From a bacterium (GTDB taxonomy: Bacteria; Hydrothermota; UBA3073; JACQXS01; JAQTXJ01), in contig JBAZNK010000002.1 of NCBI GenBank assembly GCA_041649255.1, positions 778-64,777 on the forward strand: a stretch of DNA of 64,000 nt, given 5' to 3'. A model generated the notes under the pieces. That model searched no databases and was not told the origin of the DNA. It was given only the letters and a program-made list of their open reading frames with translations. How positions within the stretch are numbered: the stretch's first letter is position 1; each line of letters starts with the position of its first letter. Shown in pieces: positions 12,950-37,060 of the stretch. The translations under genes and the position numbers were made by a program.

Positions 12950-13475
12950 AGTAGAAATTAAAAGGTAGATAAAAAGCCCTTCTCGGAGTTAGTTGACGGA
13001 AGGTGTATAGCGTTGAAAAATAGTTAGTCCCCCGTATTATCCCTTTCGGTACAAATTGAACGGCAATTCACTATTAATATCTGGAAGTCAGTTAAGTAGT
13101 AGTGATAGTTTTTTCTCAGTAGAACATTTTATAGAACAAAAATTGTTCTATCGTAACCCGCTGAAATATAAAAACTTAACGTATGTAAACCTGTGGAGAA
13201 CATTCATGATTATATTCTTGATTATAAAGAACTTGAAGAATTGGGTTTGGAAGTAGAATTTTGCAAAAATGGAACTAGACACATAATGGGTGAGTTAATT
13301 AATTTTCTTGAAGAATATGATGGCAATGAGGTTATTGTTTGTAAGAAAAATTCTGCAAGGGAAAATAACATAACGCAACCGAGTTCCCCCATCGTTCCCG
13401 GGGGAGCTTTTTATTTATCGGGGGGGACAGAAACCTATTGACAGGGAAAGGTTTTGATATCAATATGTTTTATAT

Positions 13476-17713: not shown

Positions 17714-17950
17714 ATGGTTATCAACTACATAACCCTCCAAGACATCCAGAAAGGAACACACGAAAAGAATCGGATGGTCATAATCCAGTGCAGGAATTGT
17801 AAAGAACAAAAGATAGGAAATCACATAGATTGGGTGAAAGATTGTATAAGAGACCCGGGGCACTATTCTTTGCATAGATGTCCGGTTTGTAAGACGGAGA
17901 CAAAACTGAAGAATACTGATATAAAGAAAATTAAAGAGGTGCTGGGGTAG
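17714..17950 (+). CDS. Small zinc-ribbon protein (CxxC…CxxC)
   Basis: CRNCKEQK … CPVCKTE pairs of Cys. Confidence 0.35.
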   Translation: MVINYITLQDIQKGTHEKNRMVIIQCRNCKEQKIGNHIDWVKDCIRDPGHYSLHRCPVCKTETKLKNTDIKKIKEVLG

Positions 17951-18063
17951 GATGAAATAGGTAATTTGTAAGAGATATAAGATGTAGTGATTTTCTCAAG
18001 ATTTTACTTGCAAGACAGTATGATTGAGATATTATTTCATAAAAAGAATATGAGGAGGAAAAC

Positions 18064-19585: not shown

Positions 19586-22426
19586 ATGATAACCAAGGAG
19601 CAAGCCAAACAAAAAATCCAAAAACTCATTGATAAATACAATATAGAAAAAGAAGAACTTAATACCTACAACGAGGAAGCCACAAAAACTGGTTTTATTC
19701 AACCTTTTCTGAAAGATGTTTTAGGCTGGGATGTGAATGATCGCAACGAAGTTAGTCCCGAAGTAAAAATATCAAAAGGTAGGGTTGATTATGGACTCAA
19801 GATTGATGGTAAAATTAGGATTTTCGTTGAAGCAAAATCACTAAGTTCTAACCTTAATAAACATATTGAACAGGCAGTCGGGTATGGTTACAACAGGAAA
19901 GATGTTCCTTTTGTCCTTCTTACTGATTTTGAAGGAATAAAACTTTTTGACGTAACAATCAAACCGGATTCCAAAAACCCTCTAAAAGGTTTAAAAATGG
20001 ACCTTCACTGGGACCAATATATTGACCAGTTTGATAAATTATGGTTGATTTCAAAAGAATCTGCAATCTATGGGAAACTTGACAAATTACTTCTGATAAA
20101 ACCTAAAGACAGACTCCCGGTTGACAAAGCTATTCTTAAAGACCTTAGCGAATGGCGAGAAATCTTGGCTAAAGACATCTTTAAAAACAACCCCAAACTT
20201 TTCCACTCGGAAGACACGGAAAAAGATGCTGACTACCTGAGAGAAATAACACAGAAAATCCTTGACCGTCTAATCTTTATGCGATTCTGCGAAGACCGTG
20301 GCTTTATTGACCGTAGTTTCTTAAACGCATTATTTGAGGGAAGAACGGATTCTGTCGGCACTATTACAATGGTATTTCTTAAAGAAGAGTTTAAGCATTA
20401 TAATGGCATATTTGATAGTGATCTGTTCAGACCTCAGGAATGGGAAAATAATTTAGCAATTGACTTCAAAATTATGCGAAAAATCGTTCTGGATACTTAT
20501 AATCCTTACCAGTTTGATGTTATCCCGCTGGAGGTTTTGGGCAATATCTATGAACAGTATTTGGGTTATACTATCAGGTTGACCGAGCATCAGGTAAAAT
20601 ATGAGTTAAAACCGGATGTCCGCAAAGCAGGCGGAGTTTATTATACCCCCGAATATATCGTTGACTACATTGTCAAAAATACTGTTGGCAAATCATTACA
20701 AGAGTTATCCAACAAGAAAATAAAGAAACTTAGAATATTAGACCCAGCTTGTGGCTCAGGCAGTTTTCTTATCAGGGCTTATGAAGAAATGCTAAATTAC
20801 TACCAGAATCAGAAACCAAAAAAACAGAAAAAAATATCAACAAAACAGTCAGAATTAAATTTAGGGCACGAAAAAAAAGAACAACGCCTCACAATCCACG
20901 AAAAAGCAGACATCCTGTGCACCCATATATTCGGTGTAGATATAGATGAACAAGCAGTAGAAGTAACAAAGCTTTCCTTGATGTTAAAAATGCTTGAAGG
21001 CGAGCAGGATAGAATCCATGGCAAAGATCTCTTGCCAATGCTAAATAAAAACATCAAATGCGGCAACTCTTTGATTTCCGGCAATGTCTTAGAACTCACA
21101 AGATACTTTGGCAACGACTACTATAAAGTCAAACCTTTCAACTGGAACGAGGAATTCAAAGAGATTATCGTTGACGAGAAGGGGTTTGATGTCGTAATAG
21201 GTAACCCACCGTATTCACTTATTGGTTCTGATAGAAGGAAGGAACAATTGTATTTTAGAGATGGTAATTTCGTTATGGAATCTTATAAAACTAATACCTA
21301 TATGCTATTTTTAGAAAAAGGCTTAACTCTCTTAAAGAAGAAAAGTGCAGTTTTGGGATATATTATACCTAAATCTTTAGTATTTAACACTTTTTTTAAT
21401 GATGCAAGAAAATTTTTATTATCTAATTTTGCAATCCCCGAGATTATAGAGATAAAAGAAAAAGTTTTTGTTGATGCCGAGGTAGGAGATAGTATTTTGT
21501 TTTTTGCAAAAAAGGATAAAGATTCAGTCAAAAACCTTCTTAATTATTATAAAGTAAAAAATATATTCCCAGTTTTTGATATTATTGAACATCACAAAAA
21601 TATTCAAAGTAATTTATTACAGCAAAGTGAAATAAGATTTTTTGAGGACACAATAAAGATAAGAGCCAAAACACAAAGACTTGGCGATATATGTGTCGTA
21701 TCCAATGGGCTTAACCCTGGGAATATAAGACATATTTTATTATCATCTTCACCGGAGACTTCTAATCATAAAAAAATGTTACTTGGTAGAGACATAAAGC
21801 GTTACTTTACTCATTGGTCCGGAACATGGGTTAATTATGATTCAACCTTGAAAGAAAAGATTAAAATGACAGACATAAAATCAAAAGCAGGAATGACAGC
21901 ACAAAAGAAAGTAGATTTTGCTTTAAGAAATCCAAAAATATATTCCCCTAATAAAATTGTTATTAGAAAAACCGCTGATTGTATTTTAGCAAGTTATGAA
22001 AAAGAAGGGTTTTATTTTGATTCTTTATCCCACGGAATTCAACTCAAAAAGGAAGTTAACGGGTCAATCCTTTATATTTTGGGACTCTTAAATTCTAAAT
22101 TCATTAATTATATACATAGTAATATATCACAAAATAAGGGAAAAGTATTTGCAAAAGTTTTAGGTAAAAACTTAGAACGACTTCCTATTCGCACTATTGA
22201 TTTTTCTAACCCTGCCGATAAAAAGCTTCACGATGACATTGTTGCATTAGTTGATATAATGCTTGACTTAAACAAAAAACTCCAAACCGCAAAAGGCAAC
22301 GATAAAGACTACATCCAAAAACAAATCACCCAAACCGACAACGAAATTGATACCATAGTATATAAACTTTATAACATAACTGAGGGAGAGAAGAAGATAA
22401 TAGAGACTGTCGAATTACAAAAATGA
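19586..22426 (+). CDS. Type IIL/IIG (MmeI-like) single-chain restriction-modification enzyme: N-terminal PD-(D/E)xK nuclease (HsdR-N-like) fused to a gamma-class N6-adenine DNA methyltransferase and a C-terminal target-recognition region
   Basis: The N-terminus (TGFIQPFLKDVLGWD…GRVDYGLKIDGKIRIFVEAKS) carries a D…E-x-K nuclease motif. Methyltransferase motif I (LDPACGSGSFL) precedes motif IV (VVIGNPPY). The length (946 aa) and domain order match MmeI-family enzymes. No separate methyltransferase gene is present. Confidence 0.85.
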   Translation: MITKEQAKQKIQKLIDKYNIEKEELNTYNEEATKTGFIQPFLKDVLGWDVNDRNEVSPEVKISKGRVDYGLKIDGKIRIFVEAKSLSSNLNKHIEQAVGYGYNRKDVPFVLLTDFEGIKLFDVTIKPDSKNPLKGLKMDLHWDQYIDQFDKLWLISKESAIYGKLDKLLLIKPKDRLPVDKAILKDLSEWREILAKDIFKNNPKLFHSEDTEKDADYLREITQKILDRLIFMRFCEDRGFIDRSFLNALFEGRTDSVGTITMVFLKEEFKHYNGIFDSDLFRPQEWENNLAIDFKIMRKIVLDTYNPYQFDVIPLEVLGNIYEQYLGYTIRLTEHQVKYELKPDVRKAGGVYYTPEYIVDYIVKNTVGKSLQELSNKKIKKLRILDPACGSGSFLIRAYEEMLNYYQNQKPKKQKKISTKQSELNLGHEKKEQRLTIHEKADILCTHIFGVDIDEQAVEVTKLSLMLKMLEGEQDRIHGKDLLPMLNKNIKCGNSLISGNVLELTRYFGNDYYKVKPFNWNEEFKEIIVDEKGFDVVIGNPPYSLIGSDRRKEQLYFRDGNFVMESYKTNTYMLFLEKGLTLLKKKSAVLGYIIPKSLVFNTFFNDARKFLLSNFAIPEIIEIKEKVFVDAEVGDSILFFAKKDKDSVKNLLNYYKVKNIFPVFDIIEHHKNIQSNLLQQSEIRFFEDTIKIRAKTQRLGDICVVSNGLNPGNIRHILLSSSPETSNHKKMLLGRDIKRYFTHWSGTWVNYDSTLKEKIKMTDIKSKAGMTAQKKVDFALRNPKIYSPNKIVIRKTADCILASYEKEGFYFDSLSHGIQLKKEVNGSILYILGLLNSKFINYIHSNISQNKGKVFAKVLGKNLERLPIRTIDFSNPADKKLHDDIVALVDIMLDLNKKLQTAKGNDKDYIQKQITQTDNEIDTIVYKLYNITEGEKKIIETVELQK

Positions 22427-25400
22427 ACAATGCAAGTTTTTGCATAGATTTATTTAATACAAGAGAAAAAGCAACCATTATTTGGTTGTTAATTTTCGGG
22501 GTTTGGGCATTATCTAAAAAAAATATTAGAAGTTCGTTTTGGATAAATATAAAAGGGTTATTTGAAAAAAAGATTTTGGTCTTAATAATGGCTATGCTCG
22601 TTTACATTGGTTTTATATTTGCTATTCTGTCAAAAATAGGGATTTGGAATATTTCTTTGACAAAAGATACGGTTTTTTGGGTTTTGGGTTCAGCATTTGT
22701 GCTTCTGATAAATGTAAATAGAGCTATGGAAGACGAACATCATTTCAAAAAAATAATTTTAGATAACTTAAAGTTGATTTTAATAATTGAGTTTATAGTG
22801 AATCTTTACACCTTTAACTTTTGGATTGAGTTAATACTAATACCAGTGCTTTTCATGCTTGTTGCCGGAAGTGCCTTTACAAAAATAAAAAAAGAGAAAA
22901 AAGTAATTGATTCTATTTTGTCAGCTTTTGGTATTTTACTTATCGTTTTTACTCTCGTTAAAATATTTGAAAATTATCAAGCTTTTGCGAGTTTAGAAAA
23001 CTTGCGTGCTTTTACCCTACCGCTTCTATTAACTTTTGCGTATTTACCATTTTTGTACTTTTTTGCTCTTTTCATGTCTTATGAAAGTTTATTTGCTCAC
23101 CTTGATTTTTTTCTAAAGAAAGACCTAAAGTTAGCAAAATTCGCAAAACAAAAAGTTTTTACTTTATGTCATGTTAATCTTGGCAAACTTAACAGATTTT
23201 CAAAGGGAAGTGCTCAAGAGTTGATAAGACTAAACAATAGAAATGATATATTGAATATGATTAAAACTTTTAAAAGAGCCCGAATTGCCATTTCAAAAGA
23301 AAAAACAATTCAGAATATTAAATATTTTAGTTACTCACTGTTATTATCGTTATTTATTACCTGCATGATTCTAATTGTTTGTGAAAATAGTGGCTTTATA
23401 AAAGATTTTTCAAATAAGATTATAGATATAGCTATTGTATCTTTTATACTACTCTTTTTTTTACATTCTTGGAGTACAACACAGAAGTTCTGGCAGAGAT
23501 ATAAAAATACTAAACAGTTATCTACCCAATCCTTCATTAGCAATCTTGATTGTATAATTTTAACTACCGCATTAGTCATTATTTTCCTATTGATTTGTTT
23601 TTTAATTTACTCCGCTAAGCCTATTTTAATTTTTACAGGAGTTAATAATATTAGGCGGATAATACTAACTTTTATATTTATATTTATGTGGCTTTTATTA
23701 AGTTATTTCTCGAATAAAAAAACAGGAACAAAAAGCGTTGGGAATAAAAACATTTCTTCGCTTTCCGATGAACCTATAGATAATTCGGGACGGGATTTAT
23801 TAGGACGCGAAAAGTTTATTGATACTCTATACGATTCAATTATAAAACTTCCCTTCGAAGATTCTTTTGTTTATGGGCTTTCTGGACGCTGGGGAGAAGG
23901 CAAAACATCGGTAATTAAGCTATTACAAAATAAATTAGAAGAAAATAAAGAGTTTTTAATTGTAGACTTTAAGCCTTGGTACTTTAATGATGAAGAAACT
24001 ATATTTACTGCCTTTTACTCTCAACTTGAACAAGCTTTAAGTAAAGAGGCTATATTCCCAAATATAAAAAGAACATTTAATAAATATTTAAAACTCATTT
24101 CGGTAAGAGTGCCACAAACAGATATTAATATTAAACTTCCACATTGTGAGGAAACTTTAGAAGACGTTAGAGATAATATGCAAAAATTCATACAACAAAC
24201 CGAGAAGAAGATAATTATATTCATTGATGATATTGATAGATTAGAGAGAAAAGAAGTCTTGCTTGTTTTTAAGCTTGTTCGTCTTAATATGAATTTTAAG
24301 AATACAAGATTTATCCTGAGTTTTGATGTAGATGCGGTTCGAAAGCTTTTGAAAGGCAGTAAAAAGGAAGGGGATTTTGAAGATGCTAAAATAGACCCCG
24401 AATTTTTGGATAAAATTATTCAGGTTACTACTGATTTGCCAGCTATTGAACAAATATATATCGACCAGTTTTTATATAGTTATATTGATGGAAGAGTAAA
24501 TAGAACATTACTTAAAAATATCCTTCGCAAGTATCCAGATAAGTGGGAACAAATCTTTGATAATCCAAACGATGGATATCTATATTTTAAAAAAGGACTT
24601 CAAGAAAATGATTTTGTATTTATGACAGATTTAAAAGAGAAAGCAGAGGTTATAAAATTCTGGGAACCATATAAAGAAAATCTTTTCGATAAACTTGATG
24701 TTTCCCGAATCGATAGAGCAGAGTTTAGAAATAATTTTGACAATTTATATGAAACTCAAATTAAAACATTATTTAAAACTTTGCGTATCACTAAAAGATA
24801 TTTAAATAGTTTATGCTTAATGCTTCCAGCGGTTAAAGATGAAGTTGATTTGCATGATTTCTTTGTTTTAGAAGTAATACGGACTTTTTATTCGACAGTT
24901 TATGAAGATATATGGTTAAACCAAAAGTTTTATATTACAGAAAAAGAGGAAGAAAACAGAATGCCAAATGAAATAATTACGCATATAAATAAGATTGTTG
25001 AAAATCAACAAGAGAAGGATATTCTGATGAAGCTATTAAAGGCTATTTTCCCATTGGTAAATGCAAGTTATTATAACGCTAAAGAATCTAAAATGCCTGA
25101 TGTAGTGGCATGGAATAGAGAAAAAAGAAAAATTCACCATTTTGAATGTTTTAAGAGATATTTCATGCTTAGAGTCCCTCCATTAGAGATACCGGATGCA
25201 ACGGTAAAAAATACATTAATCGAATGGAATAAAGATAAAAACAAGATTGAAACTTCTATTTTAAAATTTCGCGAGAAAGATCAACTTTTAGAGTTTTTCC
25301 GTAAAATAAGTGTGTTTAGGAATGTTATAAATATAAAAGAAGAAATAATTCCTGATATTGCAAATATTGTTCTTAATAAATATAAAAAGGAATTAGAAGT

Positions 25401-26058
25401 TTATGAATACAGTGCGGCAAAAAAATTGTTAATGGAATTATACAGGGATAAAAAAGTTAATAAGTTTCCTGCAATAATAGATACTACAGGGAACAATGAA
25501 TTTATTATAAATAATTATTTCCTTGGAGAGAAGGAGGGAACTTTTTCTATATGGGCTAAAGTAACAGACGAACATAATTCATCTACGAAGCATATGTACA
25601 TAATAGGGACTGCTTCTGATGGTGGGCGAAGAATAGGGATTAGCGCTTCGCAAGGAACAGTAGACTTTTATATGAATGTATTTGCGATAGCAAGAATGGG
25701 AAGTAAAAAATGTTGGAGTTTCTGGTGTACAAATGATAAAGGAGAGGAAAAACTTATCGATTCGGATTCCAATAAGGCACTTTCCGTTGGATGGCATTTA
25801 TTTACCGTTTGTTGGTCAAAAACAAAAGGTTTTGTTAGTTTTTATATAGATACTATGTCAATTAATAAACCAAAGGAGGAGAAAGTTATTGAATCATGGC
25901 CTGTAACTTACGGAGAATGTGTTATAGGAACTTGGCCTAATAGAGCCAAAGAACATTATTTTAATTCAGAAATTGGGTACTGGGAAATATTTAACAAAGT
26001 AATATCTGAGGACGATATAAAGGAAATCTATGATGAGAAAATCAAATTTTTACCATGA
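22423..26058 (+). CDS. Membrane-anchored KAP-family P-loop NTPase with C-terminal LamG/ConA-like lectin-fold domain (1211 aa)
   Basis: The start overlaps the RM gene stop (ATGA). Residues ~1-440 form a polytopic membrane domain of roughly 10 hydrophobic helices. KAP Walker A (GLSGRWGEGKTS) and Walker B (IIIFIDDIDRLE) are present. The C-terminal ~200 aa (FSIWAKVTD…HMYIIGTASDGGRRIGISASQGTVDFYM…WHLFTVCWSKTKGFVSFYID…) has a LamG/pentraxin-like jelly-roll pattern. Confidence 0.8.
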   Translation: MNNASFCIDLFNTREKATIIWLLIFGVWALSKKNIRSSFWINIKGLFEKKILVLIMAMLVYIGFIFAILSKIGIWNISLTKDTVFWVLGSAFVLLINVNRAMEDEHHFKKIILDNLKLILIIEFIVNLYTFNFWIELILIPVLFMLVAGSAFTKIKKEKKVIDSILSAFGILLIVFTLVKIFENYQAFASLENLRAFTLPLLLTFAYLPFLYFFALFMSYESLFAHLDFFLKKDLKLAKFAKQKVFTLCHVNLGKLNRFSKGSAQELIRLNNRNDILNMIKTFKRARIAISKEKTIQNIKYFSYSLLLSLFITCMILIVCENSGFIKDFSNKIIDIAIVSFILLFFLHSWSTTQKFWQRYKNTKQLSTQSFISNLDCIILTTALVIIFLLICFLIYSAKPILIFTGVNNIRRIILTFIFIFMWLLLSYFSNKKTGTKSVGNKNISSLSDEPIDNSGRDLLGREKFIDTLYDSIIKLPFEDSFVYGLSGRWGEGKTSVIKLLQNKLEENKEFLIVDFKPWYFNDEETIFTAFYSQLEQALSKEAIFPNIKRTFNKYLKLISVRVPQTDINIKLPHCEETLEDVRDNMQKFIQQTEKKIIIFIDDIDRLERKEVLLVFKLVRLNMNFKNTRFILSFDVDAVRKLLKGSKKEGDFEDAKIDPEFLDKIIQVTTDLPAIEQIYIDQFLYSYIDGRVNRTLLKNILRKYPDKWEQIFDNPNDGYLYFKKGLQENDFVFMTDLKEKAEVIKFWEPYKENLFDKLDVSRIDRAEFRNNFDNLYETQIKTLFKTLRITKRYLNSLCLMLPAVKDEVDLHDFFVLEVIRTFYSTVYEDIWLNQKFYITEKEEENRMPNEIITHINKIVENQQEKDILMKLLKAIFPLVNASYYNAKESKMPDVVAWNREKRKIHHFECFKRYFMLRVPPLEIPDATVKNTLIEWNKDKNKIETSILKFREKDQLLEFFRKISVFRNVINIKEEIIPDIANIVLNKYKKELEVYEYSAAKKLLMELYRDKKVNKFPAIIDTTGNNEFIINNYFLGEKEGTFSIWAKVTDEHNSSTKHMYIIGTASDGGRRIGISASQGTVDFYMNVFAIARMGSKKCWSFWCTNDKGEEKLIDSDSNKALSVGWHLFTVCWSKTKGFVSFYIDTMSINKPKEEKVIESWPVTYGECVIGTWPNRAKEHYFNSEIGYWEIFNKVISEDDIKEIYDEKIKFLP

Positions 26059-26308
26059 TATAATTAGAAACACAATATAGATTCCCTATTTTAATTTTCC
26101 CGCATTATAATACCTCTACTATCAATAAGTTCATCTCCGAAATCCTCAAACAAGTATTTTAAATTTTCTAACTCTTTTTATTGGTTTTTCCATACAGAAA
26201 CCGTTCCTTTTCTGTATGAAATATTCCTATGGGAAATTTCCGCATATATCATGCTGTTTTGTATGTTCCTGTTGCCCAAGTAATAACATATCGGCGCCAG
26301 CGTCAATG

Positions 26309-26428
26309 TGCTTATTAAAGTGGAAATAAACACTGGTAAACACTAGAAGAATTGTAGGAAGCAAACCTATAAAAGCAGTTAAAGGAGGTAGAAAAAATGG
26401 TTTTTAAAGTATTTTCTCATTTTTGCCT
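26309..26428. repeat. Repeat A1: ~120-bp noncoding element with a paralogous copy at 30871..30983
   Basis: …cttattaaagtggaaataaacactggtaaaca(ca)ctagaagaat…ataaaagcagttaaaggaggtagaaaaaatgg…ttttctcat aligns with 30871..30983 at >80% identity. Confidence 0.8.
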
Positions 26429-26515
26429 TGAACGTAATTGCGGCAAGGATTGAACGGGTTTGAACCAGATTGAACAGGTCTCGTTCAAAGCTGTTCAATT
26501 TGAACAATTGAACAG
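26428..26515. promoter_or_regulatory. Iteron array 1: 8 copies of heptamer TTGAAC(G/C/A) (6 direct, 2 inverted)
   Basis: ttgaacg, ttgaacg, ttgaacc, ttgaaca, (cgttcaa), (tgttcaa), ttgaaca, ttgaaca within 88 bp. Confidence 0.75.
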
Positions 26516-26525
26516 AGGTAAAAAC

Positions 26526-26750
26526 TAGGGACAATAACTATTTGTTTTCTTCCGTATAAGCATGTTTTTTAATGTTTTCCAACTGAATACCTCATTACAA
26601 CTCTTTGGGGTTTTCCCTTTAAGGGTTGTTTAATTAGAGTTTGCGACGTGGGAGCATTTCCGCCTCAGGCGGACTAAGTTATCCAGCTCGCAGGATATCC
26701 ATTTTCTCAGGTTATGGAAAAAATTACTTTCCCCTTGACTTTTTGTTATC
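26526..26750. repeat. Repeat B1: ~225-bp conserved noncoding element (candidate structured RNA / regulatory leader) with a paralogous copy at 31586..31790
   Basis: The core …ttacaac(t/c)c(t/c)ttgg…ttttccctttaagggttgtttaattagagtttgcgacgtgggagcatttccgcctcaggcggactaagttatccagctcgcaggatatc…ttgact is almost identical in both copies and contains the hairpin ccgcctcaggcgg. A second hairpin shows a compensatory change (ccctttaaggg versus ccccttagggg). Confidence 0.75.
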
Positions 26751-26804
26751 CCCGTTTTACATTGGAATCAGTTCTTTGATACTTAATTTGTAACTTGCGT
26801 GTGT

Positions 26805-26935
26805 AAAAGCTCCGACAGAGCCATGTAAGTTACCTCAGTAGCGTAAGCTATTGGGGGTGGTCTATTGCTCCTAAGTCTCTGTCGGAGTAGCTACGACTTC
26901 GGTCGTAGCCGAGCAATTTGGCTGCCCCTTTTTTA
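26805..26935 (+). ncRNA. Candidate structured small RNA / leader (multi-hairpin, UUCG tetraloop)
   Basis: An 11-bp long-range stem ctccgacagag/ctctgtcggag encloses ~56 nt. It is followed by a perfect 8-bp hairpin gctacgac-TTCG-gtcgtagc and then ggctgcccc + T7. Confidence 0.3.
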
Positions 26936-27016
26936 TTTGCGGGCAAGGAGGGAATAAAATGAAGCTGAAGAGATTTAGATATAAATTATAAGATTTTTAA
27001 TTAAGCCTTTTAAGGC

Positions 27017-27463
27017 TTGAAAGGGGGAACGATGTCTAAAAAATTGGGTATAGTTTTAATCAGTGGAATGTTTGTTTTTTCTTCCTTATCTTATGGTAAG
27101 GAGAAAGAGCCTGTTGTTTCTGGTTGTATGTCTTTTTTAATTCCTGGACTTGGACAGGTATACAATGGGCAGGTTGCGAAGGGTTTTTCATTTTGGGGAG
27201 CTAATTTATTTGGAGACTACTTAATGATAGTAGCGACAACCTCAACTGACCCCACAACATCTTGGCTTTGTTTTATTCCAGGTTTAATTATTTGGGGAGG
27301 TAGTGGCATTTGGAGTATTGTTGATGGTGTAACTGTTGCCAATAAAATTAATAGTGGTCAAAAGGTGGAACTGGAGCTCAAATCTGTAAATTTAAGTGAG
27401 TTGAATCTTTATCCCCAAACCAAAAAAAACGGTCTTGAATTAGCTTTTACTTATAAGTTTTAA
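27017..27463 (+). CDS. Small integral membrane protein (3-4 TM helices)
   Basis: Hydrophobic segments; PGLGQVYNGQ motif. Confidence 0.55.
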   Translation: MKGGTMSKKLGIVLISGMFVFSSLSYGKEKEPVVSGCMSFLIPGLGQVYNGQVAKGFSFWGANLFGDYLMIVATTSTDPTTSWLCFIPGLIIWGGSGIWSIVDGVTVANKINSGQKVELELKSVNLSELNLYPQTKKNGLELAFTYKF

Positions 27464-27475
27464 GAAGGAGGAAAA

Positions 27476-28222
27476 ATGTGGAAAGAATCAAGTCTCGTAG
27501 TTTTGATAGGTATATTGTTATTCACCGGGTGTGGAAAGAAAAACCCTACCGATGGGAGTAATAGTAATCATCCCCCATATACTCCTGGGAACCTTATCTA
27601 TAGTCCTTCTGACGGTGCAACAGGAGTTGTTACTTCTGCTCAATTGAATTGGTCAGGTGGTGACCCAGATGCAGGTTCTACGGTGAAATATACGGTCTAT
27701 TTTGGTACCCAATCACCACCACCTTTAGTGTCTTCTGACCAATCTAATACAACTTATAACCCCGGAACGATGATTGGAGCTACCACGTATTACTGGAAAG
27801 TTATGGCAAAAGACAATTTCGGTGTCACTGCAACAAGCCCTGTATGGTCGTTTGAAACTTATGGAGCCCATAGAAATGAATGGAATTGGACTAACTCATC
27901 ATGGAGTACTCTACCAGGTAATTATACTTATCTTGGTCCGTATTCTTTAAATGCTGGTGATTCTTTGAACATTACTGTAACAAATGTTTCGTCAAACACT
28001 GGAGGACTGTTTTGTTGTACTGCCCAAGATTTCGCCAACTGGCAAGCAGGAAATACTTCTTATTCTATCTTTTCTGTTAATGGTTCTACAGGAGGAACTT
28101 GGAAAGTATGCGTTTCTTCAACGGATAATTATTATTTTGTTAATGATAATACCAGTTCTATTGTTACAACAGTTACATTTGATCTTAAAGTTGATGTGAT
28201 AAGATGGGCATGGTATAAGTAG
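27476..28222 (+). CDS. Lipoprotein with fibronectin-type-III-like domain
   Basis: Lipobox LLFTGCGKK. FN3-like pattern PGNLIYSPSDGATGV…LNWSGGDPD…YTVYFGTQ…TYYWKVMAKD. RBS aaggagg. Confidence 0.6.
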   Translation: MWKESSLVVLIGILLFTGCGKKNPTDGSNSNHPPYTPGNLIYSPSDGATGVVTSAQLNWSGGDPDAGSTVKYTVYFGTQSPPPLVSSDQSNTTYNPGTMIGATTYYWKVMAKDNFGVTATSPVWSFETYGAHRNEWNWTNSSWSTLPGNYTYLGPYSLNAGDSLNITVTNVSSNTGGLFCCTAQDFANWQAGNTSYSIFSVNGSTGGTWKVCVSSTDNYYFVNDNTSSIVTTVTFDLKVDVIRWAWYK

Positions 28223-28372
28223 ATAATAAAACCAGCCTGCTCTTTGCAGGCTGGTTTTGTTTTACCCAAAAGTTAAATTGACATACCTTAGGCAACTATT
28301 AAACGAATTTCCTCCTTGACACTCTTATAGCTATGCAATATAAATTTTCTTAATTGGATATCATATAAGCAA

Positions 28373-29044
28373 ATGAGAAATATAGGTAAAAAAGAAGCGA
28401 TAGAGAATCTTAAAAACTGGGGAAAGGTTTGTCACCACCCACAGAAAGAAGTTCAAAAGCATATTAAACACCCCAGTCAACAGAAGAAAATAGATGAGAT
28501 ATTAAAAGATGTGCCTTTATTAAAAGTAAAGAGGGCAAAAGCTTTTTGGAATAAATGGTGCAAAGAGATAATGAAAAATGAGGAGTTGGAACAGATTTAT
28601 CGTGCATTGGACTCAAGTCTTAAAACAAACCGTTCTTATTGGCAATTCAAACGCGTTGCGATATTATTCTTGTATATTTATGGATACATATCAGATAAAG
28701 AGTTAGATTTGATTAAAAAAGATATAGATAAAACCGAGCAGATTTTTGATAAACATAGAAAAGAGATGAAAATAATTAAAGAAATAGACGACGCCCTGCG
28801 AGATAAGAAGTTCCGGGGACATATTCCTATGAATGTTTCCTGTCTGGCTATAGGAGCAAGCATTACGTTTACAAGAGCAGTAAAAGCAATTTTAGACGTG
28901 ATTGAAAGACTGCATAAAGATAAGGATTACAGAGAAGGACATTATTACGGTGGCACAATTGACTGGGATGAAGCTATTTTATTCAGCGGACAACCATATG
29001 AATGGTGCAAAAAAGGAGGGAAAAATGAAAGAGATGACAGTTAA
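28373..29044 (+). CDS. Hypothetical protein (223 aa)
   Basis: ORF with moderate coding signal; alpha-helical, Lys/Glu-rich. Confidence 0.5.
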   Translation: MRNIGKKEAIENLKNWGKVCHHPQKEVQKHIKHPSQQKKIDEILKDVPLLKVKRAKAFWNKWCKEIMKNEELEQIYRALDSSLKTNRSYWQFKRVAILFLYIYGYISDKELDLIKKDIDKTEQIFDKHRKEMKIIKEIDDALRDKKFRGHIPMNVSCLAIGASITFTRAVKAILDVIERLHKDKDYREGHYYGGTIDWDEAILFSGQPYEWCKKGGKNERDDS

Positions 29045-30191
29045 GTGTTTCAAAAAAGGGGATAAGGCGTTGGATGTATTAAAACTCAAACACAATCTTG
29101 AGTTTGATAAGCACAACAAACATACTGCATTGATTGAAACTTATAAAGTTTATTTTTATCCGAATAAAACCCTAATGATGATTGAAGGATTAAATAAAAA
29201 AGGCAAGATGATATTTCTTAAAAATTGCTCTACTGCTTCATCTTTTGGAGATGATAATAGCGTTTATATCTATCGGAAACGAAATAAAACAGACAAGAAA
29301 GTCCCCGATAAAGATTATAACTTTATTGTATGCAATAAAAGCGGACAGGTTATAGAACATGAATACTGTGGTGGATCTAAGAGTACTTACAAATATGACG
29401 CCAATAATCGTTTAATAGAAGAGGTCTCCGATGGCTCAGTTATCTGGAAATACAAATATGATAAAAAAGGCAGGAAAATATCGGAAACAAAATATGATGA
29501 CGATAACTCTATAAGGAATATCAGAAAGTATTATTACGATGATACAGACAGACTGTTGAAAAGAAAGCTTTCGGAAAAAATACTTTCCGGAGAATATCTA
29601 GATTCTTATTCTTTGTTTCATTACGATAAACATTCTAACCTTATTAAAGAGGAAAATTTTGACTGGAATAAAAAGGTATGCAAAGACTGGAATGAGTATA
29701 AATATTCTAAAGATGGGAAGCTGGTAGAAAAACGAGATTGTTGTATAGCAAAATCTAAAACAAGAGAAAGAGAAAAAATTAAATATTTTTATGAAAACAA
29801 ACTGCTTAAAGAGGAAATCGTGTATCTTGAAGAACAACCGGGATTATCTGATACAAGCGCTATAAAGAGTAGATTATATTCAAAGACCTGTTACACCTAT
29901 GATTCTCATGACAGGCTGATTAAGAAAGAAATATTTCAAGCTGATGGGAAATTAGACCATCGTTATATATGGGAATATGACAACAAGAAAGTTGTTATGG
30001 ATAAAAAAGCGTTAGCAACTCTTTCATATTTTCAAAACGAAGGATATAAAGTATTAATTAATAATAACAGAGTATTAAAGGAAAAGGAAAAAATGTTTGC
30101 CCCTACCCTCCTTAACGATTGTCATTGGGAATTTATAACTACTTACGAATATGATAAGTATGGCAGGCTTGCTAAGGTCACTATGCGTTGA
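29025..30191 (+). CDS. YD/RHS-repeat-like protein (388 aa)
   Basis: Degenerate YD repeats (YKYDANNRLIEE, KYKYDKKGRKISE, YYYDDTDRLLKRK, YTYDSHDRLIKKE, YEYDKYGRLAKV). The start is chosen at the ATG preceded by the strong RBS aaaaggagggaaaaATG rather than the upstream in-frame ATG at 28902. Confidence 0.5.
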   Translation: MKEMTVKCFKKGDKALDVLKLKHNLEFDKHNKHTALIETYKVYFYPNKTLMMIEGLNKKGKMIFLKNCSTASSFGDDNSVYIYRKRNKTDKKVPDKDYNFIVCNKSGQVIEHEYCGGSKSTYKYDANNRLIEEVSDGSVIWKYKYDKKGRKISETKYDDDNSIRNIRKYYYDDTDRLLKRKLSEKILSGEYLDSYSLFHYDKHSNLIKEENFDWNKKVCKDWNEYKYSKDGKLVEKRDCCIAKSKTREREKIKYFYENKLLKEEIVYLEEQPGLSDTSAIKSRLYSKTCYTYDSHDRLIKKEIFQADGKLDHRYIWEYDNKKVVMDKKALATLSYFQNEGYKVLINNNRVLKEKEKMFAPTLLNDCHWEFITTYEYDKYGRLAKVTMR

Positions 30192-30870
30192 GAGATATAA
30201 TACACCAAACAGTTAATAATAGTCAATAACACTAAATTAAAATAAAACTTACAAAAAAACGATTGATTATATGCGCGAACAAGTAGACAACGGATATGAA
30301 ACCCTCTATAAACAGGAACGCATGGAATTTCTCTTCGGGTAATTCAGAGAAGATATTTGCTATATTTTATCAACTGGTTACTATAAAGATGTTGTTCGTA
30401 CTTGCCGGTTACGGTATCGTCAAGTTTTTAAAGAGAGACAAAGAACTTGAGCCAGAATTAGGAATTAGATAGATTTGGGCGTATCGTTTAAAACGTCTCC
30501 CAAGAGACTCGGAAAAGCCAGACTTACCAAAATTCTCTTCACGGAGGCCATCCACAACATCCCCCTGCGTCCCATAAACTCTTTTTTAAGCACTTTTCCC
30601 AATGTATGCCTTTTTGCTTCTATACGCCCCAAATCGCTTAAAAAGGTCATTTAGGACACCCCTTAAAAAATACTCTACCCTGTGTCCTGCAATTTTTTTA
30701 GTCAAGTATAAGGAAGGGGCTAATTATGGTTCTTGTTTGAAAAAGTGTTCCGTTTTGGGAAAACAAATATTAGATTAGAGGGTAAACAAATTTTATTCTT
30801 TAAAATATTAAAGGTAAGTTTGTGATTACATAGGGAAAGATTAAAGCCTGAGAAATTGGGATTTAATACG

Positions 30871-30983
30871 CTTATTGAAGTAGAAATAAACACTGGTAAA
30901 CACTAGGAAGAATACTAGGGAGTAAACGTATAAAAGCGGTTAAATCAGGTAGAAAAATGGATTATTAAGTGTTTTCTCATTGG
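30871..30983. repeat. Repeat A2 (paralog of A1)
   Basis: See A1. Confidence 0.8.
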
Positions 30984-31489
30984 TAGCGCTGGTAATACTT
31001 ACAATAACGACTGCTAGGCTTTGCTGGATTTTGAAAAATCCTTCAGCAATTCCTAGCTATTTGGTAAATTGCTGGAATTGTTAGAATGAAAATAGGGGAT
31101 AGATTACTAATTTCTTGTCGAAGTTTTCAACATTCTCGATTAAATACCTAGTTTCCTTTGAGGTGAGGCGAGTTTAGTCGGTGGAGTTAGTTTAGTCCAA
31201 CAGAGCTGGATAGCAACCCCCAAGGACTATCGTCCAAGAGTTTGTTATAAGTTGAGTTAGTTAAGTTGGTTTCCACTAAAAAAGGCGGCCATGAAAAGAA
31301 GTGGCCAGTAGAAAGTCCTGCGAGCAGGATAGAAATCCCTCCAGTAAAAGACTCTAGACAAACAATCCTTAATTAACATAAGGGCTTGTAAGTAATCGCT
31401 AAAGCTTCAAAGGCTTCCTATAGATAGACATAAAAGAGGGATTAAATAGCGCACAAAATCACTTTTTTCTTATTTTTCCATTGTTAGCG

Positions 31490-31578
31490 TTGACAATGTT
31501 TCTAGCAAGGATTGACAAGTTTTGACAAAATCCATCAAAAACCTCTGTCAATTTTTGTCAATTTGACAAATTGACAAA
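31490..31578. promoter_or_regulatory. Iteron array 2: 7 copies of heptamer TTGACA(A/G) (5 direct, 2 inverted), in the same relative arrangement as array 1
   Basis: ttgacaa, ttgacaa, ttgacaa, (ctgtcaa), (ttgtcaa), ttgacaa, ttgacaa. Confidence 0.75.
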
Positions 31579-31585
31579 ATGAAAA

Positions 31586-31790
31586 TAGGGGGCGGGTTAC
31601 TAATTTTTTGCCGAAGTTTTCAATCTTTCCGAGCAAATACCTTATTACAACCCCTTGGAATTTTCCCCTTAGGGGGTTGTTTAATTAGAGTTTGCGACGT
31701 AGGAGCATTTCCGCCTCAGGCGGACTAAGTTATCCAGCTCGCAGGATATCTATTTTTTCAGGTTATGGGAGAAATCACTTTTTCTTGACT
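31586..31790. repeat. Repeat B2 (paralog of B1)
   Basis: See B1. Confidence 0.75.
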
Positions 31791-31825
31791 TTATAAAATA
31801 ATCCCTGTATACAATAAAAAACTTT

Positions 31826-33034
31826 ATGGAAGAACCTAGAGAAGAACAAATCCATCTGGAAATCTTAGAGTTAAAAGAAAACCACCCCGAATTATTCTCG
31901 CAGGAAGTCTTTAATTCGTTAATCAAAGAAATATCTATCAAAGAATCAAGCATTAAAGCATATATTACCCTTTTTTTCGGATTCATATATGTCTATAATG
32001 ACAAAAATAAACTTTCTAAAGAAAAACAGGATTTGAGAACGGAAGATATATGGCGAATTTTTAAGCTTTTTGTATCGTTGAATAAATCAGAACAATATTG
32101 TGAGCTTTCCAGAACTATTCTTTTCGAAGAGAAAGATAAATTACATCCCGGGGTACAAAGTCATTGCATTAGAGCAGCAAACCTTTTTCATAAAATAAAC
32201 TCTGTAAATATTGACGGGATTGGAGTTATAGAGTGTTTATTTGAAGGAAGCGTTAAAGAAATGTTAGAAAAATCCCGTTCCCATGAAAAAGCCAAAAAAT
32301 TCTTTTATGAATTATGTTATCAAGAAATTCTACATTATAAAATGCTTAAATTCCAGTTGATAAAATGTTTTAAGAATGACTTTTTGTACAAAATAGGAAA
32401 AGATGAGATAGAAAACATTTTAGTTCAGCTATTTTTAGGCGGAAGCGAAGAAGTAAAAATAAAAGAGCCTATTGTAGGACAAGAAAAAGGAAAGCTTAAA
32501 CTGGAAAGATACGAATGGCATAATGTTACAAAAACTCACAGGGACGCTGCAGAAAACATCTTATCTTCTTATAAGGAATTCGTAAAAGAAATTATAAAAA
32601 CTTATCGTTATATCAGTTTAGAAAGTAGAAAAATACCGATTAAAGATAAAAACATCTATGGAGGTAGACCGGCATCTGGAATGTCTTTTAAAAAATCATT
32701 ATATGATCTCGTAGAGTTATTAAAGTCATTAAAAACAGGAAAAGTATACGAAAGTGTATTGTTATGTCTTATATTTTATGGCACAGATTCATTTGAAGAA
32801 TTTAGGAATGATACTATGGATGCTGAAACTCTAATAAAGCAAATTGAGAATAATACGGGAGAATATAGCCTAGATGCTAAAGGAAAGAATATTTTTGACA
32901 ACCAAGATGAACCTGTCCGTAGCTATTTCTGGACTTGTAGAGAAACGATACGAAAAAAAGTAACTGAATATAGAAAATTTGTTAGAGAAACGCCCTTGCC
33001 CCAAAAAGAGAATTTAACAATTAACATCCCTTAA
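31826..33034 (+). CDS. Hypothetical protein (402 aa), first gene downstream of module 2; candidate iteron-binding/regulatory or replication-type protein (speculative)
   Basis: Long alpha-helical ORF immediately after the B2 element. No recognisable motifs. Confidence 0.55.
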   Translation: MEEPREEQIHLEILELKENHPELFSQEVFNSLIKEISIKESSIKAYITLFFGFIYVYNDKNKLSKEKQDLRTEDIWRIFKLFVSLNKSEQYCELSRTILFEEKDKLHPGVQSHCIRAANLFHKINSVNIDGIGVIECLFEGSVKEMLEKSRSHEKAKKFFYELCYQEILHYKMLKFQLIKCFKNDFLYKIGKDEIENILVQLFLGGSEEVKIKEPIVGQEKGKLKLERYEWHNVTKTHRDAAENILSSYKEFVKEIIKTYRYISLESRKIPIKDKNIYGGRPASGMSFKKSLYDLVELLKSLKTGKVYESVLLCLIFYGTDSFEEFRNDTMDAETLIKQIENNTGEYSLDAKGKNIFDNQDEPVRSYFWTCRETIRKKVTEYRKFVRETPLPQKENLTINIP

Positions 33035-33264: not shown

Positions 33265-33525
33265 TTGAATAAACAAAAAAAGGTGAATAAAGGGAAAAAA
33301 CAGAAAGTTAAACAGAATAAGACAAAGGGAAATCAAATAAGTTACAAAAGTTCCAACTTAATTTCAGCAAAGAAACATAAAAATAATACCAGTTTGTGTA
33401 ATTTATCTCTGGGAAGCGTTAAGTTCGAGACAGATGACTTTACCCCAAGTACTTTAAATATACTTGCAAGATTTATAAAGGATTGTAGTAATAAAAATCA
33501 TTCTGATGGGCAAAATACAAAGTAG
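33265..33525 (+). CDS. Small Lys-rich basic protein (86 aa), possible DNA-binding/recombination directionality factor (speculative)
   Basis: Highly basic N-terminus (KQKKVNKGKKQKVKQNKTKGN). Located directly upstream of the recombinase. Confidence 0.3.
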   Translation: MNKQKKVNKGKKQKVKQNKTKGNQISYKSSNLISAKKHKNNTSLCNLSLGSVKFETDDFTPSTLNILARFIKDCSNKNHSDGQNTK

Positions 33526-33592: not shown

Positions 33593-35260
33593 ATGGAAAA
33601 CAAAGAATTAATAAGAGCTAGTATTTATGTCAGGGTCAGTACTGAACTCCAAGAAAGAGAGGGCTGTTCACTTGGTGAGCAAGAGAGAAGATGTAGAGCG
33701 TACTGTGAAAGTAAGGGATGGGTACTTTACAAGGTTTATAAAGACTCGGACTCCGGTCGGAATATTAACCGTAAGAAATTACAGGAGCTGATACAAGATG
33801 CAGGATTAGGATTTTTTAACGTAGTAGTTGTTTTCAAACTCGATAGGATGAGCCGTAATGTTAAAAATATGCATCATATAATAGAAGAGTTTGATAAAAG
33901 AGAAGTGAATTTTGTATCTATCACTGAGTCCCTTGATACGAGTAGTTCTGTCGGAAGACTTACCTTTAATATGTTATCTTCCATTGCTGAGTTTGAGTCT
34001 GATGCCATAGGAGAACGGGCTTATATGGGAATGCTTGGCAAGGCGGGAAAATGTAATTATAATGGCGGAACTATTTCTGATGGATATAAAGTAGAGAATA
34101 AAAGGTTAACAATTGATGAAACCAGAACTCCAATTATACGGCAAATTTTTGAATTATATTGCCAAGGCCATCCTGAAACTAAACAAGAAATGAGCACCAG
34201 CACTATAGCTAAGTGGCTCAATGAAAAGAACTACCATACAAATCAGCACACTACAAAGGCAGGCAAACTTATTGGAGGAAAAAAATGGGGAAGTGAAACA
34301 GTAAGAATAATTTTGTCTAACCCTGTATATTATGGTGTTTATACGTGGAATAAATATCGTATTAAACGTAAAGATGGTAAAGTAATTAGCCAACAAAGAG
34401 ATAGGAAAAATTGGGTATATATAGAAAATGCCCATGAACCTATTGTTTCAAAGGAAATATTTTTGGCTGCACAAGAAAAGCTTAAAGTGAAAAGGAAAGC
34501 CAGCGATAAAGAGTGTCAAGAAAACTATTTATTTAATGGATTATTACATTTTTCTCCCTGCGGAATAAAATTAGAGGGCTGGAAGAAAACAAGAGCAATA
34601 GAAGAAAAAGATGAAATAAAAACTTATGAAGATAAATACTACCGTTGCAATCCTTCCGGTTGGCGAAGGATAAGAGGTTTAAAAAGCGATGAACCACTTA
34701 CTCCGCATTGTGAAGATTGCAGGCTTAAATATGTGAGAAAAGAGGTGATTGAACCTTTTCTTATAGAACAAGTTAAGAATCTTCAGGGAAGACTACCAGA
34801 GATTAGGGAGTTAGTGGAAAAGCTGAAAGTATGTAAAGATACTGAAACAGAAGATTTAGATAATAAAGAGCAAAATTTTATAAGGGAAAAACGTATACTT
34901 GAAAATGAGAAACAGAGGCTATTTGACCTACTAAAGAAAGAGAATATTGCATTAGATAAATTTAGCCAACAGATAAAAGAAATTGCTGAGAGAGAAAAAA
35001 AAGCAGAAGATGAACTTTTTCTTGTTTCTGTTCAAAAGGCACAGTTATCTTATACTGAACAGGATGCTTCAGTGGCGGAGGAGCTTATACTCCAGTTTAG
35101 AGATTATTTGACTTGGGCTACTGATACGGAGAAAAAGCCACTTGTTCAAGCATTAGTAAAAAGAGTAGATATCGAGTCAAATGGTAAAGTAAATATAACG
35201 TTCAGACTTCCTCTTCAGAATAGGGAAGTCAGTAGTTCTGTTGTAACGATGGCGACGTAG
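33593..35260 (+). CDS. Large serine recombinase (resolvase/invertase N-terminal catalytic domain + recombinase domain + zinc ribbon + coiled coil)
   Basis: Catalytic-Ser motif RASIYVRVSTELQ, then FKLDRMSRN, a Cys cluster (CGIKLEG…CEDCRLKY) and a long coiled-coil C-terminus. Its TAG stop lies inside the tRNA-Met gene. Confidence 0.85.
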   Translation: MENKELIRASIYVRVSTELQEREGCSLGEQERRCRAYCESKGWVLYKVYKDSDSGRNINRKKLQELIQDAGLGFFNVVVVFKLDRMSRNVKNMHHIIEEFDKREVNFVSITESLDTSSSVGRLTFNMLSSIAEFESDAIGERAYMGMLGKAGKCNYNGGTISDGYKVENKRLTIDETRTPIIRQIFELYCQGHPETKQEMSTSTIAKWLNEKNYHTNQHTTKAGKLIGGKKWGSETVRIILSNPVYYGVYTWNKYRIKRKDGKVISQQRDRKNWVYIENAHEPIVSKEIFLAAQEKLKVKRKASDKECQENYLFNGLLHFSPCGIKLEGWKKTRAIEEKDEIKTYEDKYYRCNPSGWRRIRGLKSDEPLTPHCEDCRLKYVRKEVIEPFLIEQVKNLQGRLPEIRELVEKLKVCKDTETEDLDNKEQNFIREKRILENEKQRLFDLLKKENIALDKFSQQIKEIAEREKKAEDELFLVSVQKAQLSYTEQDASVAEELILQFRDYLTWATDTEKKPLVQALVKRVDIESNGKVNITFRLPLQNREVSSSVVTMAT

Positions 35261-35324
35261 CTCAGTTGGTCAGAGCAGAGGAATCATAATCCTTGTGTCG
35301 GGGGTCCGAATCCCTCCGTCGCCA
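35251..35324 (+). tRNA. tRNA-Met (anticodon CAU; elongator-type or tRNA-Ile2 lysidine type)
   Basis: Cloverleaf: acceptor GGCGACG/CGTCGCC, D-arm gctc-agttggtca-gagc, anticodon stem gagga/tcctt with loop aTCATAa, T-arm ggggg-tccgaat-ccctc, discriminator A. CCA is not encoded. Confidence 0.8.
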
Positions 35325-35479
35325 TAAAAAAATAAATAACCCCGCTAGCATGGTTTAAACTCCGAAAAAATACTTACCCAACAGACTTATAGAAAACACT
35401 TATAGTCAAACTGGGAGATAGGTAGAAGCATAAAGTTAAGAACTTAAAGAGAACAAAAAAATAAGATGTTTGTTTGAAA

Positions 35480-36984: not shown

Positions 36985-37060
36985 TTTTTTATGGAGTTTT
37001 ATACTTAATAATAACTAAAAAGTCAAGGGAAAATTCTCACTTTCATAAATATACTTGATA

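Follow-up and report, generated by a model that had tools for sequence, protein, structure and literature searches.

Intergenic modules carrying in-register repeat arrays of different unit sequence in a genomic island of a WOR-3-like bacterium

The DNA considered here is a 64,000-nt stretch of contig JBAZNK010000002.1, called the window below, and its subject is a pair of paralogous non-coding modules with arrays of short repeats. The host is WOR-3/Stahlbacteria-like and belongs to the FCB group; sorting domains of the type IX secretion system (T9SS) and PorV are present, and the best named matches of its MutS are from WOR-3 (64%) and Stahlbacteria (61%). The modules lie in a mosaic island made up of blocks that encode a type IIG restriction-modification enzyme, a KAP NTPase, envelope proteins, an Rhs fragment, an orphan open reading frame (ORF), a basic protein and a serine recombinase. 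Both stand directly 5' of co-oriented gene blocks and have sharp borders, module 1 extending over 26303-26743 and the second copy from 30863 to 31793. Their parts follow in the order element A, array, spacer and element B (Table 1).

Array 1 is built of TTGAAC units at 26428, 26450, 26460 and 26470 (direct), 26483 and 26493 (inverted), and 26500 and 26508 (direct). Array 2 is built of TTGACA units at 31490, 31512 and 31522 (direct), 31546 and 31556 (inverted), and 31563 and 31571 (direct). Counted from the first unit, the offsets are 0/22/32/42/55/65/72/80 in array 1 and 0/22/32/[42, degenerate]/56/66/73/81 in array 2, so that the two are in unit-by-unit register, with identical orientation at each position. 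The sequences flanking the units are also partly common to both (caaggaTTGA.., aatTTGA..AaTTGA..). At the same relative position each array holds a perfect 15-bp palindrome, TGTTCAATTTGAACA at 26492-26506 in array 1 and TTGTCAATTTGACAA at 31555-31569 in array 2; each can thus be described as a 7-1-7 palindrome core accompanied by direct half-sites at 8-10 bp spacing. A larger dyad in array 1 is centred near 26474. The preliminary description of this DNA, made from the sequence by eye, had reported eight TTGAAC and seven TTGACA units, and their positions, matching offsets and matching orientations are confirmed.

TTGAAC and TTGACA are the sole hexamers outside low-complexity sequence that form clusters of at least five per 110 bp in the window, both strands being counted. 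In 200 second-order Markov simulations of 64 kb the maximum number of copies per 110 bp was 4 in 142 runs, 5 in 57 and 6 in one. Low-complexity sequence, a trivial explanation raised at the outset, is not what the arrays are, as they exceed these simulated maxima (4-6 per 110 bp) and are flanked by A and B. Over the whole window TTGAAC is not over-represented (44 observed versus 48.7 expected). AT-rich stretches of 25-30% GC flank array 1 in a genome that is itself 34% GC. As single strands, the array 1 region is predicted to fold into a long imperfect hairpin (z = -4.1), and the array 2 region gives z = -2.7. The arrays are not an assembly artefact, since an independent ENA assembly (L023) is identical (100% over 21.2 kb).

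Conservation along the modules is itself mosaic. In global alignments of module 1 with module 2, over the spans listed in Table 1, A is 83% and B 88% identical, within the 80-90% first estimated for these flanks, whereas the array reaches 61% and the spacer 56%. The DNA directly outside the modules shows 39-49% identity, the level of unrelated sequence. Despite the 83-88% identity of the flanks, the same two-base difference (AC to CA) runs through all seven comparable units. Uniform drift after a recent tandem duplication, the other trivial explanation, is excluded because the centre is far more diverged than the flanks. Since seven of seven units differ alike while the flanks are conserved and the array and spacer stand at 56-61%, either a coordinated change or a replacement of the central segment is indicated. 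Judged from these alignments the unit change is coordinated and not drift, as the preliminary description had proposed.

The region at 30.87-31.79 kb, first taken for a single module, is in fact a tandem of two. It reads A2, a third array, a copy of the spacer, a decayed B'/A' junction, the TTGACA array, spacer and B2, and a whole-module profile matches 30865-31154 with E = 7e-27 (nhmmer). The third array, which had been missed, has a unit of its own: TTGCTG occurs exactly at 31021 (+), 31044 (-) and 31069 (+), together with the variants CTGGTA, CTGCTA, TTGGTA and TTGTTA, and the array is 60% identical to array 2. The decayed junction holds inverted copies of a B-core piece, GAGCTGGATA, at 31203-31213 and 31316-31332. 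Within the tandem, conservation is limited to the outer A and the outer B, suggesting that one upstream A and one gene-proximal B are maintained by selection or gene conversion. The observation is real, and stronger than first reported.

Table 1. Parts of the two modules and the features that follow them, in window coordinates
Feature	Position	Strand	Description
Element A copy 1	26303-26421	+	83% identical to 30863-30982
Array 1	26428-26513	+	TTGAAC x8, six direct and two inverted, 86 bp
Spacer 1	26521-26589	+	AT-rich, 25-30% GC; 56% identical to spacer 2b
Element B copy 1 (B1)	26590-26743	+	Hairpin 1, core, -35 box TTGACT; 88% identical to B2
Structured leader	26765-26940	+	Downstream of the predicted module 1 promoter, outside the paralogous module
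Element A copy 2 (A2)	30863-30982	+	Located by alignment to copy 1 and nhmmer
Array 3	30989-31083	+	TTGCTG type, partly degenerate, ~8 units, in register with array 2
Spacer 2a	31090-31149	+	Copy of spacer 2b; 77% identical to 31583-31640
Decayed inner junction	31150-31483	+	B' ~31214-31340; A' 31392-31483; ~52-56% identity
Array 2	31490-31576	+	TTGACA x7, five direct and two inverted, 87 bp; fourth position degenerate
Spacer 2b	31583-31640	+	Located by segment alignment
Element B copy 2 (B2)	31641-31793	+	Hairpin 1, core, -35 box TTGACT; homology ends at 31793
402-aa orphan ORF	31826-33034	+	First gene after the predicted module 2 promoter
86-aa basic protein	33265-33525	+	Homologue also precedes the recombinase in L146
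Large serine recombinase	33593-35260	+	Resolvase and Recombinase domains; stop overlaps the tRNA-Met 5' end
tRNA-Met(CAT)	35250-35325	+	Right boundary of the island

Element A is purine-rich and contains two tandem 10-mers, TAAACACTGG and TAAACACTAG (26327-26346), that are exact in both copies. The promoter scan gave no convincing promoter in or before A. Element B opens with hairpin 1 and its T-rich tail (26598-26628 in B1, 31648-31679 in B2), the module 2 copy of which was flagged as terminator-like. Pairing in hairpin 1 is preserved from B1 to B2 through one double compensatory substitution (T-A to C-G) and two substitutions that leave G-T wobbles. The B core follows (26640-26700 and 31691-31751). 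It contains GGATATCC in B1 and consists of an outer stem, TTTGCGA/TCGCAGG, around a TCCGCC-TCA-GGCGGA hairpin, and a third hairpin reaches the module end. The folding z-score of B is about -3 on the plus strand (-3.2 for B1) and -1.95 on the minus strand.

The homology of B1 and B2 stops directly after the 9-mer CTTGACTTT, which in module 1 places the border at 26743. A sigma-70-type promoter is predicted at this 3' end of B. Its -35 box, TTGACT, lies at 26735-26740 in module 1 and at 31785-31790 in module 2; the candidate -10 boxes, each at 17-nt spacing, are TACATT (26758-26763, from the promoter scan) and TATACA (31808-31813, weak and read by eye). The module 2 mRNA would be nearly leaderless, because the ATG at 31826 is only 12 nt past TATACA. 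Within the window CTTGACTTT occurs at 19549, 26734 and 31784 on the plus strand and at 37027 and 44761 on the minus strand. The sites outside the modules lie upstream of a restriction-modification gene (19549), gcvH (37027, followed 17 nt later by TATAAA) and recQ (44761). In related genomes the 9-mer is found before the isoleucyl-tRNA synthetase (IleRS) gene of L168 (13579, with TATAAT) and at 3895 of L171. Since it recurs upstream of other genes, it is best regarded as a lineage-typical -35 region. As a motif it resembles an extended -35 box, often stands 17 nt before a TATAAT-like hexamer and may represent a promoter consensus of the lineage.

The module 1 promoter would be followed by a structured leader of 165 nt, which ends just before the membrane-protein gene. 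Its minimum free energy is -66.8 kcal/mol (z = -5.8), and it closes with a terminator-like hairpin at 26905-26925 and a T run. The leader has no Rfam match; it is a candidate non-coding RNA and could be a riboswitch-like attenuator. With Rfam 15, tRNA-Met alone passed the gathering threshold, and nothing credible appeared in either module at E values up to 5. Other assignments tried for element B were rejected. A sigma-54 promoter in the core would have the GG-N10-GC spacing, seen by eye in the window, but the GG is lost in the B-core homologue of L001. A DnaA box in the core would be TTATCCAGC, which carries two mismatches. A small conserved ORF (MRR[G/R]SISASGGLSYPA..., or a frame ending in ..CDVGAFPPQAD*) has no Shine-Dalgarno sequence, one frame is interrupted in module 1, and three synonymous changes stand against three non-synonymous ones.

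Outside this locus the modules are hard to find. Profiles of A, B, spacer and whole module detected no further copy, either elsewhere in the window or across ~100 kb of related WOR-3 DNA (nhmmer). The A core and the left part of B have no match in IMG/VR, and module 1 shows no similarity to phage and plasmid DNA. Scans of genomes, metagenomes and viral sequences yielded no other A-array-B module. A B-core 21-mer, searched in 185,579 species-representative genomes, gave one true homologue, in the metagenome-assembled genome (MAG) STD1_36 (L001), and one chance match. The L001 core is 94-96% identical over 50 nt; the hairpin that follows is replaced by a different hairpin and a T run. This MAG, too, encodes T9SS-type proteins. 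In metagenomes the B-core 20-mer TCCGCCTCAGGCGGACTAAG occurs in 20 contigs with unrelated flanks and 42-65% GC, once inside a 16S rRNA helix, and these matches were put down to chance or to generic GC hairpins. Of the contigs L002-L022, about 15 that are independent and unrelated carry it, often within a longer stem (CCTT..AAGG); it is commoner than expected of a random 20-mer, which may reflect a widespread hairpin element or the mere abundance of hairpins. The B-core piece GAGCTGGATAA and the neighbouring CTAAGGACT recur inverted in the decayed B', at 56.6 kb and in L001, which points to short intergenic motifs that are lineage-wide. Distinct MAGs also share the intergenic motifs GAGATTCTTCRCTWCGYTCAGAATGACA, CTAAGGACTATC and GAGCTGGATAAGTTAGAYTAATGTTC, found at 56590-56690 (-) of the window, at 2022-2054 and 3420-3500 of L001 and at 12710 of L171; some of these motifs reappear in inverted orientation in the decayed B' (31203-31240) and the B core. 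Searches of the literature for the B hairpin, for TTGAAC iterons and for serine-recombinase elements at tRNA-Met gave no result.

Arrays of the same style are found in viruses. TTGAAC-N4-TTGAAC-N4-TTGAAC occurs in at least 120 IMG/VR contigs and, among the matches listed, many of the arrays are non-coding and have inverted copies and AT-rich tracts. Their neighbours include genes for DUF3987/DUF5906 helicase-type proteins, an arm-binding tyrosine integrase and a terminase with a helix-turn-helix (HTH) domain, which bears out the first comparison with iterons. The left-right-right arrangement at the 3' end of arrays 1 and 2 is likewise found in viral non-coding DNA, with both TTGAAC and TTGACA, in one case between putative small and large terminase genes (L163/L164/L166; identities read from the sequence). 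Three viral loci (L149 389-455, L150 13180-13339 and L160 397-463) have 3-7 tandem copies of a 23-bp unit, GTTCAAaTTGAACttTTGAACtt, that shows a left-right-right arrangement like the 3' end of array 1. Because viral contigs carry like arrays beside such genes, the array style may be taken as that of protein-binding iterons, which would serve several uses: origins, arm sites and possibly pac sites.

Short-unit arrays are also common in the host's own lineage. Related WOR-3 loci have about one per 20 kb, each with 5-8 unit copies, in some cases in both orientations, so that the mere presence of an array is less novel. L168 has six copies of TCTGTG/CACAGA at 13440-13570, just upstream of the CTTGACTTT-TATAAT promoter of IleRS. 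In L170 about eight copies of CACAGATTA (17900-18060) abut a glycosyltransferase gene, L171 has five intergenic copies of AATTTGG (3710-3790) and L001 five copies of TTCTGT (6140-6290) beside the B-core homologue. These positions tie such arrays to intergenic DNA by ordinary genes and, in L168, to a place just upstream of a promoter.

Upstream of module 1 lie the type IIG enzyme and a PifA-like KAP NTPase (stop at 26058). The former is MmeI-like, and its gene overlaps that of the 1211-aa NTPase, which has an N-terminal membrane region (19586-26058 together); immediately 5' of module 1, the two genes resemble a defence pair. TTGAAC ends in AC like many MmeI-family sites, yet the window shows no depletion of this word. 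Module 1 is followed by genes for a small membrane protein, a lipoprotein, a 223-aa protein and a 429-aa ORF. The two annotations first offered here, an FN3 lipoprotein and a YD-repeat protein, are both weak: the Ig/PPC matches of the former are sub-threshold, and the latter, at 429 aa and with RHS repeats, is probably a gene fragment. Searched against 5.8 billion clustered and 1.84 billion representative proteins, the 402-aa ORF after module 2 finds no match but itself; Pfam, PHROGs, NCBIfam and PADLOC are all empty, and its AlphaFold2 single-sequence model (pLDDT, the model's confidence score, 37) is unusable. The expectation that a cognate binder is encoded by the genes following the modules is not borne out: this ORF is an orphan, the ORFs flanking the modules have no HTH domain match, and an all-against-all BLASTP of the window ORFs gave no paralogous protein pair in the island.

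The recombinase is CcrB/XisF-like, but below curated cut-offs. Its nearest relatives (L145 and L146) are 53-57% identical, and in all three genomes the gene overlaps the 5' end of tRNA-Met (33593-35325 in the window, 3736-5479 in L145, 338-2050 in L146). Together they represent a conserved family of serine-recombinase elements associated with tRNA-Met and carrying variable cargo; L145, for instance, has a ThiF-like gene. The 3.7 kb that precede the L145 recombinase contain neither a hexamer array nor an A or B homologue, and L146 is likewise without A and B homologues. In a mutS-based walk towards an empty tRNA-Met site in relatives, synteny was lost beyond one gene. A diversity-generating retroelement, a shufflon and an invertible promoter were also rejected: the ORFs scanned include no reverse transcriptase or small invertase, and the mismatches between A1 and A2 and between B1 and B2 are of all types. 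Elsewhere in the window there are two direct repeat pairs unrelated to the modules, near mutS, recQ and dprA (47253-47361/48276-48386, 111 nt, 92%; 41105-41147/44818-44858, 43 nt, 91%). Four AGAACA/TGTTCT half-sites at 13100-13160, in palindromic pairs such as tagaacaaaaattgttcta, precede a gene at 13476 and may be an operator.

It appears probable that the arrays are, in general terms, protein-binding sites whose specificity has been switched. A more specific proposal, which we put forward tentatively and regard as a fair way short of likely, is that the ~440-bp A-array-spacer-B unit is a portable promoter-control module with specificity-switched binding arrays. Such a module would sit at the junctions between the gene blocks of the mosaic island. 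Element B would terminate incoming transcription through hairpin 1, its T-rich tail and the hairpinned core, and would restart transcription from an outward promoter, the module's conservation ending with the -35 region CTTGACTTT. The arrays, located 220-300 bp upstream of this promoter, would be site clusters for a specific, probably dimeric and cooperative DNA-binding protein, while A, with its two invariant 10-mers, and the B core, with its GC-rich inverted repeat, would offer constant sites for shared or host factors. The array would then be the specificity determinant, re-set at least twice (TTGAAC, TTGACA, TTGCTG), so that neighbouring modules would be controlled independently. This assumes that proteins encoded elsewhere bind the arrays and that their binding governs the B promoter, not replication or segregation. 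The evidence leans to promoter control because B ends in a -35 box where the homology stops and because the arrays of relatives lie by ordinary genes. Several points tell against the proposal. There is no candidate binder, as no island ORF gives an HTH or ribbon-helix-helix (RHH) domain match and the island has no paralogous pairs. The arrays are unusually far (>200 bp) from the promoter they would control, the -10 box of module 2 (TATACA) is weak and was missed by the promoter scan, and the full module is found in one genome only. Moreover, the short-unit arrays of relatives might be non-regulatory repeats.

An alternative model assumes that the arrays are maintenance iterons of integrated satellite- or plasmid-like units, that is, origin, centromere or pac sites that diverged so that co-resident elements stay compatible, each being the target of its element's own initiator, centromere-binding protein or small terminase. 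In P4 ori/crr, SaPI ori and P1/P7 parS, short units do set specificity. The AT-rich flanks (25-30% GC) and strong dyad symmetry of the arrays would fit such a role, as would the position of a large serine recombinase by a tRNA gene at the island's end, the viral TTGAAC arrays that adjoin genes for DUF3987/DUF5906 helicase-type proteins and terminases, and the left-right-right arrangement of both units in viral non-coding DNA. We nevertheless hold this model to be unlikely, and the two satellite-like units with diverged origins that were first proposed stay conjectural. The modules do have repeated short units in non-coding DNA (8, 7 and ~8), but no initiator, primase or helicase gene adjoins them, and the island ORFs scanned contain no Rep, primase, helicase, ParA/ParM, repressor, RHH or terminase domain. 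Specifically, the ParA, ParM or RHH genes that a partition centromere would lead one to expect downstream of the modules gave no match, nor did the adjacent repressor or Cro-type HTH genes expected of a phage operator. The modules have no DnaA box with one mismatch or fewer. Module 1 precedes membrane and lipoprotein genes and module 2 an orphan, two tandem arrays stand before one gene block, and module 1 has no similarity to phage or plasmid DNA. The recombinase relatives keep the tRNA-Met junction, and L145 is arrayless over the 3.7 kb upstream. It is also conceivable, although quite unlikely, that there is no dedicated binder at all and that the arrays are lineage-typical repeats homogenised by slippage or gene conversion, their shared architecture reflecting common descent and their unit differences a drifted seed. 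The frequency of arrays in related WOR-3 DNA, about one per 20 kb with many units (TCTGTG, CACAGATTA, AATTTGG, TTCTGT), and the partial degeneracy of array 3 would agree with this. Simple slippage, however, cannot explain units that are interspersed with differing non-repeated spacers and include inverted copies; the arrays agree in spacing and orientation despite ~50% divergence of their spacers, perfect 15-bp palindromes are retained in arrays 1 and 2, and the A/B flanks are selectively conserved while the inner B'/A' has decayed.

Two further models place the function elsewhere. If A-array-B were transcribed, as the 3' trailer of the upstream operon or as a small RNA ending at the B hairpins, the hexamers could function at the RNA level, either by forming hairpins or by serving as motifs for an RNA-binding protein. 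No predicted terminator separates the KAP NTPase stop (26058) from A, stable folds are predicted for the single-stranded array regions (z = -4.1 and -2.7), B folds better on the plus strand (z = -3.2) than on the minus (z = -1.95), the G-U pairs of hairpin 1 form on the plus strand only, and the B core of L001 is followed by a classical terminator hairpin. Yet Rfam gives no match even when thresholds are relaxed, A and the DNA before it lack a predicted promoter, and the predicted folds of arrays 1 and 2 differ. Paralogous sponge RNAs would normally share one motif, whereas here the motif differs, and an RNA-level function is judged improbable. The last model, that B or A is an attL- or attP-like remnant of tandem accretion of recombinase elements at tRNA-Met, seems to us most improbable of all. 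It draws on the sharp module boundaries, on the overlap of recombinase gene and tRNA 5' end in three genomes and on a 9-mer, GCGACGTAG, that the B core shares with positions 2-10 of tRNA-Met, a match that is only marginally unexpected. An attachment site of this class would span about 40-50 bp, have imperfect dyad symmetry and be related to the element's other end, but no half-site symmetry was seen. Putative P and P' arms show no inverted-repeat relation, nor do the A start or the flanks of A and the B core when compared with the recombinase-proximal end, and L145 and L146 are without A or B homologues. Serine recombinases are not known to use arm-type site arrays.

Short units in a fixed architecture that decide which protein is bound are a known logic, exemplified by parS, omega heptads, P4/SaPI iterons and heteroimmune operators. 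In P1 versus P7 parS, the box B hexamers are the species discriminators and the ParB genes are adjacent and clearly paralogous. The likeness lies in a conserved architecture in which a uniform hexamer change at every copy switches the binding paralogue; the difference is that here there are no Par genes and no paralogous proteins. The heptads bound by omega, an RHH protein of pSM19035, and the ParG/parH tetramer boxes of TP228 act as both operator and centromere, have a contiguous 7-8 bp period and overlap the promoter. They resemble the present arrays in their 7-10 short, closely spaced units, mixed direct and inverted, upstream of promoters, but here only the 3' halves of the arrays are that dense, the distance to the -35 box exceeds 200 bp and no small RHH gene was found. 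The type I iterons of P4 ori/crr are TGTTCACC, and P4 has two iteron regions ~4.5 kb apart, a spacing that resembles the 5 kb seen here. P4, SaPI and theta-plasmid iterons also share with the modules short units in both orientations and an element-specific unit, and AT-rich flanks may be a further parallel in a genome of 34% GC. Unlike the modules, whose units differ and which have no initiator-like gene and no DnaA boxes, those systems have an adjacent initiator gene and one shared unit. Heteroimmune phage operators offer a parallel in that their flanks are conserved, the specificity segment between them diverges and their core sites are palindromic; in contrast, no repressor or Cro gene is adjacent here, and 7-8 half-sites exceed typical operators. 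The intergenic arrays of L168, L170 and L171 come from the same lineage and likewise have 5-8 copies of a 6-9-bp unit within ~150 bp, but they lie by housekeeping genes without A or B, and no paralogous pair switched in register was seen among them.

What is new is the combination of three in-register unit types in (near-)tandem modules of one island with conserved junction elements and no linked reader, in an uncultured lineage. The finding is real, tidy and testable, although it would hold little surprise for a specialist. Its practical use depends on identification of the binding factor and is limited for now, and orphans lie downstream of the modules. As a long shot, promoter control might extend beyond this island: WOR-3 bacteria may use a modular cis-regulatory system of terminator-promoter junction modules with interchangeable arrays of 6-9-bp units, read by an unlinked, rapidly re-targetable family of DNA- or RNA-binding factors. 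The three arrays would then be a snapshot of such re-targeting, and TCTGTG, CACAGATTA and AATTTGG further 'addresses'. Within one genome of an uncultured phylum-level lineage (WOR-3), the locus brings together, next to one another, three related arrays that share a fixed architecture and differ in their units. It also supplies a concrete promoter model, with the CTTGACTTT -35 box, and a conserved 50-nt element for a lineage in which gene regulation is essentially undescribed. If the arrays are binding sites, they would constitute a natural experiment in the change of specificity of a cis-element and its reader.

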